This document shows, piece after piece, positions 5,098-51,461 of a DNA stretch of 64,000 nt (positions are counted from its first letter, which is position 1; each line of letters starts with the position of its first letter). The stretch comes from Bacteroidia bacterium (lineage in GTDB: Bacteria; Bacteroidota; Bacteroidia; UKL13-3): assembly GCA_965279165.1 (NCBI GenBank), contig OZ257140.1, positions 2,936,167-3,000,166 on the forward strand. Reading direction: 5' to 3'. The notes under the pieces are model-generated. The model had not been told where the DNA came from. It saw only the letters and a program-made list of their open reading frames with translations, and ran no database searches. A program made the translations under genes and the position numbers.

Positions 5098-5611
5098 TAC
5101 TTAATGTTTTAGTTGGTGAGAATGCTGAAAAGGGGACTTCTATTTTTAAGAGGCAAGAGGCAAGAGGCATTAGACAGGAGGCAAGAGTATGTTGCCTTAT
5201 AAATTTTCATACAAATGGAAATGATTCTCCGTATTGAAGTACTAATTGTTTTAGTTACAGAGCCAATTTATTTTCTGACTTTTCAATAATTGTAGCCCTG
5301 AAAGGGCGACATATCCAAGCATCCTGCGAAGCAGGTTGATAACCGATAAAATTATTCATCACAGCCCTGAAAGGGCGACATATCTTTTTCGAAGAGTTAA
5401 GTTTTAGTACCAGATGTTTTGTGGTGCATTACATTGTAGGTAAGCTTTTTTGTTAAAAAGATGACTGACAAGGTAGTTTCTATTGTATCCAATCGCACCA
5501 CTGCACCATTCCCCATTCATAATTCATAATTCATAATTGTATCTCAAACTTCTATTAATCTGTATTATTCTACTTTAATAAACTATCTTTGATTTACAAA
5601 TAAATACCACT

Positions 5612-6244: not shown

Positions 6245-6249
6245 CTACA

Positions 6250-6318
6250 CTTATATCTTATAACTTATATCTTATAACTTATATCTTATAACTTATAACT
6301 TATATCTTAAACTTATCC
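6250..6318. repeat. CTTATATCTTATAA/AACTTAT tandem repeat island between convergent genes
   Basis: (cttatatcttataa)x3 plus partial units fill the whole gap between the stop of 5612-6244 (+) and the stop of 6313-7560 (-). Reverse-orientation relatives (ataagtt/ataagag) are at 50660-50697, directly after the 1606-aa gene stop. Confidence 0.85.
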
Positions 6319-13212: not shown

Positions 13213-13430
13213 GTTGTTTTTAATTTATTAAAGTGAGAAATGCACCAATTTTTCATAAAGCAATTCAACACTATACCGCAAATATAATCATGGCTGTTGG
13301 TAATCTGATTATCTTTTATTGAAAGTACCCATGAACCCATTCATCCAATCATTCATAATCCATTCCCGCATGTAAAAACTACGTCGTGCCTCCTTGTTTT
13401 TATCGCGCGGGATTGATTCGCCTAGCGTCT

Positions 13431-13480
13431 CATCAACATCCATCCAATCATTCATCATTCATAATTCATCATTCACATCG
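13431..13480. repeat. CATTCAT/CATCCAT heptamer tandem repeat island
   Basis: The sequence catcaacatccatccaatcattcatcattcataattcatcattcacatc has a second block at 13335-13363. The same family is at 38681-38710, 5515-5540 (cataatt), and in reverse orientation at 51344-51430. Confidence 0.85.
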
Positions 13481-13520
13481 TTTTCATCTCAATAAGAAAA
13501 TCCTTACTTTTGTTTATTCC

Positions 13521-16842: not shown

Positions 16843-16887
16843 GGGGTGATGGCTAATGGGTAATGGCTGAAGGGTAATGGCGCATGG
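16843..16887. repeat. GGGTAATGG-type tandem repeat island, left arm of an inverted-repeat pair flanking the four-helix-bundle gene
   Basis: The sequence ggggtgatggctaatgggtaatggctgaagggtaatggcgcatgg begins 7 nt after the acd stop. It is the reverse complement of the CCATTACCC island at 17723-17780. Confidence 0.8.
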
Positions 16888-17722: not shown

Positions 17723-17780
17723 CCCATTACCCATTACCCATCTGCCATTACCTATTACCCATAAGCCATTACCCATCAGC
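17723..17780. repeat. CCATTACCC-type tandem repeat island, right arm of the inverted-repeat pair
   Basis: The sequence cccattacccattacccatctgccattacctattacccataagccattacccatcagc is the reverse complement of the 16843-16887 island. Confidence 0.8.
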
Positions 17781-17876
17781 TATAAGCTACATTCCTTGCT
17801 TAATCCAAATATTTCCCCTAATATTGCATCCCCCTTAAAATAAGAAGGGAGACTTAGGGAAAGGAGGTGTATAAAA

Positions 17877-18074
17877 ATGATATTCGTAAACGTAAAAGAA
17901 AATGAATCTTTAGACAGAGCGCTAAAGAAATTTAAAAAGAAGTTTGAGAAGACCGGAGTTGTAAAAGAACTGCGCGAGCGTCAATCATTCACCAAACCTT
18001 GTATTAAGAAACGACAAGAGAAAATTCATGCATCCTATAAGTTGTTTTTACAACAACAGGAAAGCAATGCTTAA
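17877..18074 (+). CDS. rpsU: 30S ribosomal protein S21
   Basis: 65 aa with VNVKENESLDRALKKFKKKFEKTGVVKELRERQSFTKP, matching the bS21 family. A strong Shine-Dalgarno-like GGAAAGGAGGTG lies 8 nt upstream of the ATG. Confidence 0.9.
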   Translation: MIFVNVKENESLDRALKKFKKKFEKTGVVKELRERQSFTKPCIKKRQEKIHASYKLFLQQQESNA

Positions 18075-18110
18075 TGCAGTAATTTCTAACTTATAACAAG
18101 CAATTATTAA

Positions 18111-18145
18111 ACCCTGTAGCTATTAGTTACAGGGTTTTTTGTTTT
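18111..18145 (+). terminator. rho-independent terminator after rpsU
   Basis: accctgta-gctattag-tacagggt is an 8-bp stem, followed by tttttgtttt. Confidence 0.8.
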
Positions 18146-19467: not shown

Positions 19468-19488
19468 TAATTGATATTCAAATAGAAA

Positions 19489-19520
19489 GGTCCGGAATAA
19501 TTAATTCCGGACCTTTTTTT
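19489..19520 (+). terminator. rho-independent terminator after hpf
   Basis: ggtccggaat-aatta-attccggacc is a perfect 10-bp stem, followed by ttttttt. Confidence 0.85.
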
Positions 19521-19628
19521 ATACTAAATTTGGTAATGTTCAAATAATCCCCCAACTTCGCGCCCCTGTTACGCTTCCAACATCTCTTTAAATAATTTTA
19601 CAAAAAGTTTGCTTCCTATTTGCATTCA

Positions 19629-20132: not shown

Positions 20133-20207
20133 CGAAATGATAGGACATTGGACTTGGTCATTGGTGCATTACCAATGACCAATCGCCATTGACCAATGAC
20201 TTAAAAA

Positions 20208-20507
20208 GCCGTTGTAGCTCAGTGGTAGAGCATCCGCCGGTTGGCGGAGAAGAGGTTGAGAAGATAGGAAGTGAAGAAATAAGCCGTTGTAGCTCAGTGG
20301 TAGAGCATCCGCCGGTTGGCGGAGAAGAGGTTGAGAAGATAGGAAGTGAAGAAATAAGCCGTTGTAGCTCAGTGGTAGAGCATCCGCCGGTTGGCGGAGA
20401 AGAGGTTGAGAAGATAGGAAGTGAAGAAATAAGCCGTTGTAGCTCAGTGGTAGAGCATCCGCCGGTTGGCGGAGAAGAGGTTGAGAAGATAGGAAGTGAA
20501 GAAATAA
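20208..20507 (+). repeat. tandem array of four identical 75-bp units, each a 3'-truncated tRNA-Thr(GGT) copy with the anticodon arm replaced by a perfect GC hairpin
   Basis: The unit gccgttgtagctcagtggtagagca|tccgccggttggcgga|gaagaggttgagaagataggaagtgaagaaataa starts at 20208, 20283, 20358 and 20433. Its first 25 nt equal the 5' acceptor strand and D-arm of the tRNA at 20508. The next segment is a 6-bp/4-nt hairpin (tccgcc ggtt ggcgga), and the tail is purine-rich. The T-arm and 3' acceptor strand are absent. All three frames are open on both strands, so the ORF-track entries here are artefacts. Confidence 0.85.
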
Positions 20508-20579
<72 letters not shown>

Positions 20580-20837
20580 CAAGTAGTTGGGGAAGAAGGT
20601 CAAGGGTACTTCCGATTAATATCGGAACCGAAAGCTTTCAAGTTCTTTCAACCACAAAGATTTGGAAGGAAAAATAGCAAGTATAGGTGAATAAGGTTGC
20701 TATTTCGGTCAAAAAACTATACAAAGGGTGTAGTTAACGTGAGGAGAGAAGGGTTAATAAAGCAGAAACTAAAATGCAATCGATTAACCAATGAAAAAGG
20801 AAACTCAATATAAATAAAACATAAAAATTAAATCAGT

Positions 20838-22025: not shown

Positions 22026-22088
22026 TCATAGTTTAAGTAGATACTGAATGTTGGGTAATTTGATTATCCAACATTTGGTGTCTCATAA

Positions 22089-22322
22089 ACGAGTGTAGTT
22101 CAAGGGTAGAATAGTCCCGCACGTGCGGGATTGATGGGAGTTCGGTAGAGGAAAAAATTGATGTTGGTTTTAAAAGTTGAATAATGAAAAAGTTAAAACC
22201 AATAAACGAGTGTAGTTCAAGGGTAGAATAGTCCCGCACGTGCGGGATTGATGGGAGTTCGGTAGAGAAAAAAATTGATATTGGTTTTAAAAGTTGAATA
22301 ATGAAAAAGTTAAAACCAATAA
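22089..22322 (+). repeat. two tandem 117-bp units, each a 3'-truncated tRNA-Trp copy with the anticodon arm replaced by a palindromic GC hairpin
   Basis: Units start at 22089 and 22206 and differ at 2 positions. Each is acgagtgtagttcaagggtagaata (= the tRNA-Trp 5' acceptor strand and D-arm), then gtcccgcacgtgcgggat (cccgcacgtgcggg is a perfect palindrome), then tgatgggagttcgg (variable loop and 5' T-stem), then an AT-rich tail containing the 10-bp hairpin ttggttttaa...ttaaaaccaa. The ORF-track entry 22033-22431 (-) is an artefact of this. Confidence 0.85.
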
Positions 22323-22393
22323 ACGAGTGTAGTTCAAGGGTAGAATAGCGGTCTCCAAAACCGTTGATGGGAGTTCGAATCTCTCCACTCGTG
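22323..22393 (+). tRNA. tRNA-Trp (anticodon CCA)
   Basis: Acceptor acgagtg/cactcgt, anticodon stem gcggt/accgt with loop ctCCAaa, and T-arm gggag-ttcgaat-ctctc. It sits between tuf and secE, the conserved position. Confidence 0.85.
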
Positions 22394-22459
22394 CAAAAGT
22401 AACTTGGGAGTTCGAATGGCATCAATAGCAAGGAGTTCGCCCATGTAATTGCAAAAGCA

Positions 22460-33794: not shown

Positions 33795-33814
33795 TCTTAT
33801 AACCTTATAATATA

Positions 33815-33854
33815 AAGCCCTTCCTGAGTTTCAGGAGGGGCTTTTTGTTTTTTT
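33815..33854 (+). terminator. rho-independent terminator after rpoC
   Basis: gcccttcctga-gtt-tcaggaggggc is an 11-bp stem with 1 mismatch, followed by tttttgttttttt. It is preceded by a cttataa repeat (33795-33815) directly after the stop. Confidence 0.8.
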
Positions 33855-33918: not shown

Positions 33919-34260
33919 CTAATTAATTTCTAAACAGCCTGTATCAACGTAGTTATTGTCGGTTAGAAAGGCTTTTATTATATCCGAATGGGTATGAATG
34001 ACCTTTATTAAATTGTCTGTTGATGTATTTCCCATCCTCAGCCAAATTACTTTAGGTGGATGTCCATATAGAGTTACAAGGTCATAAAAATCAGCATCAA
34101 AGGTCACAATCGAATAATGCTCCCTTTTTGCGAAATCCCATATTTCACGGTCACTCTTATTTTCCAAGCCTAATTCTCTAACTTGGCCGCATTCGGGGAA
34201 TGTAAGTTTGAGATTTAATGCAACTCGGAATGAAATATTTTGATCGAATAAGAGTTTCAC
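33919..34260 (-). CDS. DUF5615-family PIN-like putative toxin
   Basis: 113 aa; MKLLFDQNIS ... DREIWDFAKREHYSIVTFDADF ... HPPKVIWLRMGN matches the DUF5615 pattern. Its start overlaps the upstream DUF433 gene by ATGA. Confidence 0.7.
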   Translation of the reverse strand: MKLLFDQNISFRVALNLKLTFPECGQVRELGLENKSDREIWDFAKREHYSIVTFDADFYDLVTLYGHPPKVIWLRMGNTSTDNLIKVIHTHSDIIKAFLTDNNYVDTGCLEIN

Positions 34261-34481
34261 GAAGCAATGAGAATTTTATGCTCCCTGTCAGCTGCATAGG
34301 AAAGGGCTGCTTGAATGTCTTCTAATTTCAATTCAGGAAAGTCTTTAAGTATCTCTTGAGTTGTCATTCCTGAAGCAAACCAGCTCAAAATATCATAAAC
34401 GCTAATTCTCATTCCACGAATGGTTGGACGACCGAATCTGGTCTGCGCATCAATGGTGATTCTTTCTGAATAGTGTTCCAT
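34257..34481 (-). CDS. DUF433-family putative antitoxin
   Basis: 74 aa; FGRPTIRGMRISVYDILSWFASGMTTQEILKDFPELKLEDIQAALSYAA matches the DUF433 consensus. Confidence 0.7.
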   Translation of the reverse strand: MEHYSERITIDAQTRFGRPTIRGMRISVYDILSWFASGMTTQEILKDFPELKLEDIQAALSYAADREHKILIAS

Positions 34482-34720
34482 TCCGCTAATTTAATGAAAA
34501 AGCATTTAGTTTCATAATTGATGTATATGGCATTACAACGACGTTCTCGCCGACGTCTCGTCCGTGAACCTATCGTTTAATACAATTCCCAAAAATAGCC
34601 ACCATAATTTCGATTTAGATTGGCTTCACTTTATGGACCAATTAAGGCTTTAGCAATACTATAAACTTATTTAAATAATCACGGACGTGACGTTAGCGAG
34701 AACGGTTTTAAAAAGCAAGC

Positions 34721-38545: not shown

Positions 38546-38578
38546 GTAGGAGGCAGGAGGCAGGAGGCAAGAGGCAGG
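38546..38578. repeat. GGCARGAG purine-rich tandem repeat
   Basis: ggaggcaggaggcaggaggcaagaggcagg starts right after the stop of 36713-38545. A relative, agaggcaagaggcaagaggcattagacaggaggcaagag, is at 5149-5187 after mltG. Confidence 0.8.
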
Positions 38579-38700
38579 TGTGGGATATTTGAATCTGTTT
38601 TGGTATAAAGTACCATGCAAGAATTCAATCGCCGCATGTAAAAAGGTATCGTACCTCCTTGTTTTTATCTTGCGGGATTAAAACATTCATCATTCATCAT

Positions 38701-39084
38701 TCATCCCTCATAAAACTCAATAGGCAAATGATCCGGATCTGCAATAAAGGTAAATCGTTTGCCGGTAGTTTCATCCGTGCGAATTGGTTCAGGTAGGATA
38801 TTCTTTGCTTTTAAATAGTCAATCCAGTTGTCGAGATTGTCAACTGTAAATGCAATATGTCGTAAGCCCATTGCTTCGGGGTAGGAGGGTCGAGCCGGGG
38901 CTGAAGGGAAAGTAAAAAGTTCAAGTCTATAATTTCCATCTAACGAAAGGTCAATTTTATGGCTATTTCGGTCTGCCCGATACGTTTCATTCACCAATTT
39001 AAATCCTAGAATTTCGATATAAAATTTACGGGACAACGCAAGATTGGAACAAATAATGGCAACATGATGGATTCCTTTTAGCAT
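38701..39084 (-). CDS. VOC family protein (glyoxalase/bleomycin resistance/dioxygenase fold)
   Basis: 127 aa; GIHHVAIICSNLALSRKFYIEILGF ... LRHIAFTVDNL are the paired beta-alpha-beta-beta-beta modules typical of VOC proteins. Confidence 0.75.
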   Translation of the reverse strand: MLKGIHHVAIICSNLALSRKFYIEILGFKLVNETYRADRNSHKIDLSLDGNYRLELFTFPSAPARPSYPEAMGLRHIAFTVDNLDNWIDYLKAKNILPEPIRTDETTGKRFTFIADPDHLPIEFYEG

Positions 39085-50661: not shown

Positions 50662-50980
50662 TAGTTATAAGTTATAAGATATAAGAGATAAGAGAGCAAA
50701 GTCTATAAAAGTTTAAGGTTAGGAAAATTTTCTCGAAGCAGGATAACGGGCAGGGGGTGAGCGGCATGTTTGAGCTCCTTTTTATTTGACTTGGATGAAG
50801 TTTTAAAAATATAGCAGCCTCAGGTGGTTACAAATGACTTGAAGCAAGGTGAAAATAAAAAGAGCGAGTAGCGAACACCCGGCCATGTAGTAATGCGAAG
50901 AAAATAATAATTTGAAATACGTGAGCTAGCCGCATTTACTACATGGGGCCCGCATAAAAAAATAAAGAGAAAATTATTGT

Positions 50981-51343: not shown

Positions 51344-51430
51344 GATGAATTATGAATTATGAATTATGAATTATGAATGATGAATGATGAATGATGAATG
51401 ATGAGTTATGAGTTATGAGTTATGAGTTAT
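51344..51430. repeat. ATGAATT/ATGAATG/ATGAGTT heptamer tandem repeat island
   Basis: It has (atgaatt)x3, (atgaatg)x4 and (atgagtt)x4 in tandem, directly abutting the GldC-like start codon. It is the reverse complement of the CATTCAT islands at 13431-13480 and 38681-38710. Confidence 0.85.
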
Positions 51431-51461
51431 GAGTTATTGGGTATAATTGACTGCAAATATA

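Follow-up and report, generated by a model that had tools for sequence, protein, structure and literature searches.

The analysed DNA, a stretch of 64 kb that is called the window below, carries two copies of a short hairpin element, designated A and B, both on the + strand. Copy A is located in a 308-nt intergenic region between divergent genes. To its left, on the - strand, lie a 42-codon membrane ORF and a ComEA-like gene, and to its right, on the + strand, lie the genes for a hypothetical protein with a signal peptide and for a Kdo transferase. Copy B occupies a 155-nt region between convergent genes, which code for a 610-aa protein (+) and a glyoxalase (-, 38701-39084). A previous inspection of the letters (the sequence-only reading) had placed one copy upstream of a hypothetical-OMP/waaA operon and the other between convergent genes, and both the positions and the gene contexts were found to be correct. 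The 26-nt 3′ half of the hairpin (CCTCCTTGTTTTTATCNNGCGGGATT) is present at 13389-13414 and 38654-38679 of the + strand and nowhere else in the 64 kb, and no occurrence was expected on the basis of 100 shuffles. The coordinates of the element and of its surroundings are collected in Table 1.

Table 1. Features of the two copies of the hairpin element in the window
Feature	Position	Strand	Remarks
Copy A left block AAAGTACCCATG	13322..13333	+	Common to copy B; includes the ATG of a 14-codon ORF (13331-13375)
CATTCAT-like heptamer units upstream of copy A hairpin	13337..13363	+	Insertion relative to copy B
Left ATCCAT direct repeat	13358..13363	+	Abuts the 74-nt unit of copy A; candidate target-site duplication
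Copy A hairpin core	13364..13412	+	Lower stem TCCCGC/GCGGGA, upper stem GTAAAAAC/GTTTTTA-C, 16-nt loop; model R1, 86 bits
Copy A 3′ block TTGATTCGCCTAGCGTCTCATCAAC	13413..13437	+	21/25 matching in metagenome copy L036; absent from copy B
Right ATCCAT direct repeat	13438..13443	+	Abuts the 74-nt unit of copy A; candidate target-site duplication
CATTCAT heptamer array 3′ of copy A	13441..13476	+	
AGGAGGC heptamer array upstream of copy B	38548..38578	+	Complementary to loop CCTCCT; context only, similar arrays elsewhere (5148-5187)
Copy B left block AAAGTACCATG	38607..38617	+	Includes the ATG of an 8-codon ORF (38615-38641)
Copy B hairpin	38627..38679	+	Outer AAUC/GAUU extension, CCGCA/UGCGG and A/T upper stem; without the 3′ block; model R1, 73.7 bits
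CATTCAT heptamer array 3′ of copy B	38684..38711	+	Extends over the stop codon of the glyoxalase gene (- strand)

Alignment of the two copies showed that they have in common CCGCATGTAAAAA, a variable stretch of 5-6 nt, CGT(G/A)CCTCCTTGTTTTTATC, two variable bases, and GCGGGATT. The hairpin is 49-53 nt long. Each copy folds into a G+C lower stem, a 2x2 internal loop, an A/T upper stem, and a 16-nt loop, the 3′ half of which is CCTCCTT (13389-13395 in copy A and 38654-38660 in copy B). The folding energy was -18.7 kcal/mol for copy A (z -3.2) and -15.4 kcal/mol for copy B (z -2.9), with z of about -3 for either strand. The stem with a CCTCCTT loop that had been predicted from the letters is borne out by these values. 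The shared three-part layout, which begins with the left block, was also confirmed, as were the two tiny ORFs, whose peptides are MNPFIQSFIIHSRM in copy A and MQEFNRRM in copy B.

Both copies are accompanied by short tandem repeats. Tandem Repeats Finder detected about ten intergenic heptamer arrays in the window, which differ in their units (AAGAGGC, ATTCATA, ACTTATA, GGGTAAT, CCCATTA, ACCAATG, AGGAGGC, CATTCAT, AGTTATA, and ATGAATT). The window is unusually rich in such arrays, which were seen at 5148-5187, 5515-5538, 6249-6316, 16844-16881, 17723-17787, 20171-20200, 38548-38578, 50663-50693, and 51345-51437. At the last of these sites, three unit types fill the whole 5′ leader, from the TATATTTG promoter box to the ATG of a GldC-like gene. 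It had been proposed that the element is embedded in CATTCAT repeats; CATTCAT islands do flank both copies, but they are not special to the element, since arrays of the CATTCAT type occur without any hairpin at 5507-5538 and 51345-51437. The heptamer repeats are thus a property of the genome and not of the hairpin element. Intergenic arrays of directly repeated heptamers are documented, and unexplained, in some Bacteroidota, Cyanobacteria, and Beggiatoaceae (PMC4679880). To this class belong the arrays around the hairpins (CATTCAT, AGGAGGC, and others), which are intergenic and often immediately precede a start codon, as at 51345-51437. The hairpin does not have the structure of a heptamer array, and the arrays are hairpin-free at 5507, at 51345, and in relatives. 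Another intergenic region with arrays (AAGAGGC and ATTCATA), 514 nt long, also holds two direct copies of AGCCCTGAAAGGGCGACATATC on the + strand (~5295-5316 and ~5361-5382), which are 66 nt apart and each contain a small GCCC-TGAA-GGGC hairpin.

Further copies of the element were sought in several collections. A scan of metagenomes with the pattern GTAAAAAN{5,12}CCTCCTTGTTTTTA returned 21 loci, only one of which is a true copy. This third copy, L036, lies on a 1,564-bp metagenome contig, and the identical sequence is present in the ENA contig L044. Its alignment with copy A spans 93 nt at 87% identity, with two changes in the 55-nt hairpin region and four in the next 25 nt (TTGATTCGCCTNGNGNCTCANCAAC), that is, in the block missing from copy B. 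The L036 element is also intergenic. It is preceded by CATTCAC/TCATTTC repeats and is placed between a methylmalonyl-CoA-epimerase-like gene and a convergent gene with a vWA domain and a T9SS tail, neither of which is related to the genes that flank copies A and B. L036 may be a third copy inside the source genome rather than a copy in another species; the conclusions hold either way. The pattern CCTCCTTGTTTTTATN{1,5}GCGGG gave 15 matches in 185,579 species genomes, and no true copy was recognised among them: the three matches in Bacteroidota proved on reading to be chance matches in coding DNA, and the other 12 were dismissed on phylum alone, as they come from unrelated phyla. No real match to the element was found in the viral contigs, plasmids, and phages searched. 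A covariance model, R1, was built from the three copies and run unfiltered on the window and nine loci. It returned no further full copies, only weak matches to a hairpin in pseudo-repeats of a tRNA-Trp gene. The known copies therefore number three, two in the window and one from a metagenome.

The pseudo-repeats are an observation in their own right. The tRNA-Trp(cca) gene (22323-22394) is adjoined by 2.3 copies, with a period of 117, of its 5′ two-thirds (22085-22348, +), in which the perfect palindrome TCCCGCACGTGCGGGA takes the place of the anticodon arm. Together with its flanks (AGTCCCGCAC on the left and GTGCGGGATTGA on the right), this palindrome agrees with the hairpin element at 19/22 positions of the latter's lower stem and flanks, as though the inner 33 nt had been left out. 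The likeness is suggestive and, with a model R1 E-value of about 0.007, could be due to chance. A comparable arrangement adjoins the tRNA-Thr(ggt) gene (20508-20580), where 4.4 perfect tandem copies of the 5′ half of the gene, with a period of 75, extend over 20206-20532 (+). Here, the G+C hairpin TCCGCCGGTTGGCGGA stands in place of the anticodon arm and is followed by a GA-rich spacer, and the real gene is the last unit. A literature search on tRNA pseudo-repeats yielded nothing relevant, and we know of no described equivalent of the tRNA-Thr arrangement. The window also holds a long imperfect hairpin at ~50884-50947 (+), CCATGTAGTAATGCG ... CCGCATTTACTACATGG, with a stem of about 14 bp, a 33-nt loop, and z of -2.3, which is followed by CCCGCATAAAAAAA and lies between a convergent 1606-aa gene and the GldC-like gene. 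A 460-nt stretch at 34261-34720, which adjoins a DUF5615 gene (33919-34260, -), contains no ORF of at least 90 aa, yet it is coding-like and may be a decayed or frameshifted partner gene.

The homology between copy A and L036 defines a 74-nt unit, TCCCGC...CAAC (13364-13437), which consists of the hairpin and the 25-nt 3′ block. The unit begins with TCCCGCATG and ends with TCTCATCAAC; it has no terminal inverted repeats, and its only inverted repeat is the hairpin at the 5′ end. A conserved fold or consensus structure (a second hairpin) was sought in the 3′ block of copy A and L036, and none was found. Short direct repeats border the unit in both copies. In copy A they abut it exactly (Table 1), and in L036 a TTTCTT stands immediately before the unit and another one after it, behind one extra G. 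Shuffling of the right flank gave p of 0.005 for copy A and 0.0015 for L036; the value for copy A is optimistic, because its direct repeats lie inside repetitive heptamer DNA, and shuffling therefore overstates their significance. The flanks of copy B contain no clear direct repeats. In addition, the copy A unit is located between two near-identical 18-nt stretches, CATCCAATCATTCAT(A/C)AT, which is the outcome expected from insertion into a pre-existing array like that at 5485-5540.

Outside the hairpin, copies A and B show weak collinear similarity, which is marginal for each block (p 0.02-0.05). The left block concerned is AAAGTACC(C)ATG; the right one, CTCAATARGMAAAT, comes behind the CATTCAT array. 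Comparison with a related contig, L043, showed that the right block of copy B is native coding sequence of the glyoxalase gene. As one of the blocks shared by A and B belongs to that gene, recombination or segmental copying is an alternative route by which copy B could have arisen.

The sites of copy B and L036 were compared with syntenic loci of relatives. The best homologue of the 610-aa protein next to copy B (68% identity) is encoded on contig L043, where the gene order (rpoB-rpoC, a 602-aa gene, and a convergent glyoxalase gene) is the same as at the copy B locus. No element is present at this site in L043, and the 602-aa and glyoxalase genes abut. At the epimerase locus of L036, the relatives (82% and 75-77% identity) have no hairpin, and the epimerase gene is followed by another gene, by heptamer arrays, or by no spacer at all. 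The arrays directly 3′ of this gene are of the AGATTTC type in L045 (505-566) and of the CTACCGA/CTACGGA type in L046 (2330-2420), without a hairpin in either case. The lack of the element at matching sites in relatives indicates that it was added at these loci and is not a conserved cis-element of the flanking genes.

Properties expected of an RNA or a regulatory signal were then considered. With Rfam 15 at curated thresholds, only tRNAs passed in the window, so that the comparison with Rfam motifs suggested by the sequence-only reading produced no matching family. Permissive Rfam scans of both loci and L036 gave chance-level matches, the best of which, to CRISPR-DR2, reached 19.6 bits against a threshold of 37 bits (E 0.31); the resemblance to a CRISPR repeat was accordingly rejected. 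None of the 14 stem pairs shows a compensatory change and 12 of them never vary, in a comparison of only three sequences, and the differences near the stem fall only in the internal loop. A covariation check on more copies had been proposed; it could draw on one additional copy, and the result fits a repeat-associated sequence. Many genes in the window are preceded by a clear Bacteroidota -7 box (TAnnTTTG). The intergenic region of copy A contains only two such boxes, at 13505-13512 (+) and 13279-13286 (-), both of which face away from the element. There is none in the intergenic region of copy B or in the L036 spacer, none is aimed at any copy, and no excess of sigma-70-like sites was detected.

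No terminator-like site follows the hairpin at either locus of the window, and there is no U-tract on either strand. On the + strand, the stem is followed by ATTGATT (A) and ATTAAAA (B); on the - strand, it is followed by AATGGAT or CGATTGA. Canonical terminators with a hairpin and a U-tract do exist in the window after rpoC, hpf, and rpsU (e.g., ~33810-33845, 19486-19525, and 18109-18145). The element resembles intrinsic (Rho-independent) terminators in that a stable hairpin is placed between convergent genes in two of the three copies. It differs from them by the missing U-tract, by the 16-nt loop, and by copy A, which is not 3′ of any gene, and it was not accepted as a terminator. Coding on the - strand, where AAGGAGG is followed after 16-17 nt by ATG, was rejected as well, since the spacing is too long, the ATG is replaced by TTG in L036, and the peptides are unrelated. 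On the + strand, tiny ATG-initiated ORFs of 14, 8, and 27 codons (A, B, and L036) end at a common TAA in the 5′ arm, with the endings SRM, RRM, and SRK. Their peptides, including MASSFTTQVISISSFTHFPIHSFLSRK in L036, are not conserved beyond the residues forced by the hairpin DNA. Taken together, none of the features expected of an independent small RNA, leader, or terminator is present, which does not disprove an RNA function.

The loop deserves separate attention. It had been described as identical to the anti-Shine-Dalgarno (anti-SD) tail of 16S rRNA; this is true of the sequence, and all three copies have CCTCCTT(G) without change, whereas they differ in the 5′ half of the loop. In Bacteroidota, the anti-SD is normally sequestered, and strong SD sites are kept only on a few ribosomal genes. 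To our knowledge, no RNA that mimics or titrates the anti-SD has been described in this phylum. The rpsU gene for bS21 (17877-18074, +) has a perfect SD, AAGGAGGTG, at 17861-17869, 9 nt before the ATG, and it is the only SD noted upstream of the window genes that were read. This agrees with the model in which bS21 regulates its own synthesis through the sequestered anti-SD (PMC7797042), which means that the organism has an SD/anti-SD circuit for the loop to touch. The element could accordingly be read as a structured RNA whose exposed loop mimics the 16S tail (ACCUCCUU, + strand) or offers a decoy SD (AAGGAGGU, - strand) and acts on a few SD-dependent mRNAs or on bS21-free ribosomes. The invariance of the loop, its predicted unpaired state in copy A, and the rpsU site speak for such a role. 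Nevertheless, we consider it improbable: the element has no promoter box, terminator, covariation, or Rfam family, the promoters on either side of copy A fire away from it, the minimum-free-energy fold of copy B pairs part of ACCUCC with GGUA, and absence from all sampled relatives is unlike a core regulatory RNA. Pairing between the loop and the rpsU leader was rejected as a specific interaction, as it is predicted to be no better than that of about 11% of arbitrary 41-nt windows. The most specific form of the proposal is that the hairpin would be transcribed, by read-through or from an unrecognised promoter, that its loop would pair with rare strong SD sites such as that of rpsU, and that the opposite strand would serve as a decoy SD for bS21-free ribosomes. 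We regard this version as very doubtful.

The tiny ORFs raise the question of a leader-peptide attenuator, in which a terminating or stalled ribosome would open the hairpin, as the ORF stops inside the 5′ arm. The shared TAA in all three copies fits this scheme, but repeats of the CATTCAT type are stop-free in every frame of the + strand, so open frames are to be expected, and the peptides are alike only where the hairpin DNA dictates the residues. Moreover, copies B and L036 have no downstream gene on the strand of the element, and there is no upstream promoter; an attenuator is hardly credible. A palindrome that acts at the DNA level, recognised as a duplex or a cruciform and serving as an operator or as a site for a nucleoid or recombination protein, would account for the length, near-perfection, and sequence-invariant arms of the inverted repeat, for the position of copy A, centred between two divergent promoters, and for the recurrence of the lower stem and flank in the tRNA-Trp pseudo-repeats. 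This, too, is improbable in our opinion. Copies B and L036 lie downstream of convergent genes with no obvious operator target, the flanking genes have no common functional theme, the element is absent from relatives, and dimeric operators do not typically have an asymmetric spacer of 16 nt between their arms. The element could also be functionless debris of segmental duplication or ectopic recombination between heptamer-rich intergenic regions, without dedicated mobility, in which case the hairpin would persist only because the events were recent. The collinear similarity of A and B outside the hairpin and the native origin of the right block of copy B are in line with this explanation, and the heptamer arrays could provide the homology for recombination. 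We nonetheless think it rather unlikely, although it has to be taken seriously. The flank similarities are individually marginal, and the hairpin is far better conserved than the adjoining homology: the stems of A and B are 100% identical and their flanks about 70%, and A and L036 differ by two changes per 55 nt in the hairpin region versus four per 25 nt beside it. Furthermore, L036 has no flank in common with A or B beyond the 74-nt unit.

Among the three options offered by the sequence-only reading, that of a mobile or repeated element is best supported, by the unrelated contexts of the copies, their absence in relatives, the direct repeats, and the lack of covariation, whereas the small RNA and the leader received no positive support. 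We therefore favour a reading of the element as an intergenic palindromic repeat akin to REPs and MITEs, non-coding, present in few copies, and lineage-restricted; in our estimate, this reading stands about midway between doubt and confidence. A discrete unit, the 49-nt hairpin with or without the 25-nt 3′ block of the fuller form, would be copied into new intergenic sites by a trans-acting enzyme or by recombination, neither of which was seen. It would preferentially land in regions that already carry slippage-prone heptamer arrays and leave short direct repeats behind. The element would not be an independent gene, and at the convergent sites (B and L036) it would enter transcripts only within a 3′ untranslated tail. 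There, the 14-bp hairpin could serve as a REP-like barrier to 3′ exonucleases; this role is inapplicable to copy A and makes no sense there, because that copy is placed between two outward-facing promoters. The CCTCCTT of the loop would be a passenger. A pure passenger model, however, does not predict the pattern seen in the loop, where the 3′ half (CCTCCTTG) shows as little variation as the stems, in contrast to the variable 5′ half.

The element is not a member of the REP or MITE classes as these are defined. REP and MITE families normally comprise tens to hundreds of copies, and REP/REPIN elements are mobilised by RAYT (Y1) transposases. No transposase or RAYT was found among the 16 ORFs of the window that were scanned against Pfam. 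The palindromes of REPs carry a GTAG or CGTC tetranucleotide tag at one end (PMC3733652). Such an end tag is absent here: the ends are TCCCGC and GCGGGA, CTAC and CGTC are confined to the loop in A and L036, and B has neither of them. The element is similar to REP/REPIN in being a short extragenic imperfect palindrome, in which inverted arms and a spacer form one long hairpin, as in a REPIN; it is likewise intergenic, including convergent sites, conserved in sequence and not only in structure, and lineage-restricted. It differs in the missing tag, in having three known copies versus typically more than 100, in that no RAYT was seen among the scanned ORFs, in its 15-nt arms, which are shorter than those of a typical REPIN, and in the additional non-palindromic 25-nt 3′ block of the fuller form. 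With MITEs it shares the character of a small non-coding unit found at unrelated intergenic sites and absent at syntenic ones, with candidate 6-bp target-site duplications in two copies. It departs from them in that terminal inverted repeats are missing from the 74-nt unit (its one inverted repeat is internal and restricted to the 5′ end), in that no parent IS is known, and in the very low copy number seen.

If the favoured interpretation is true, the element represents another family of small palindromic repeats, from a Bacteroidota lineage that has been sampled poorly. Its main use would be to mark intergenic plasticity, and it might offer a handle on the gain of DNA in heptamer-rich intergenic regions. 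The importance would be much greater if the invariant anti-SD-like loop were functional, for which the support so far is its conservation in three copies. Whether as a mimic of the 16S rRNA tail or as a decoy SD, such a loop would introduce a further, RNA-based level into the proposed bS21/anti-SD autoregulatory circuit.
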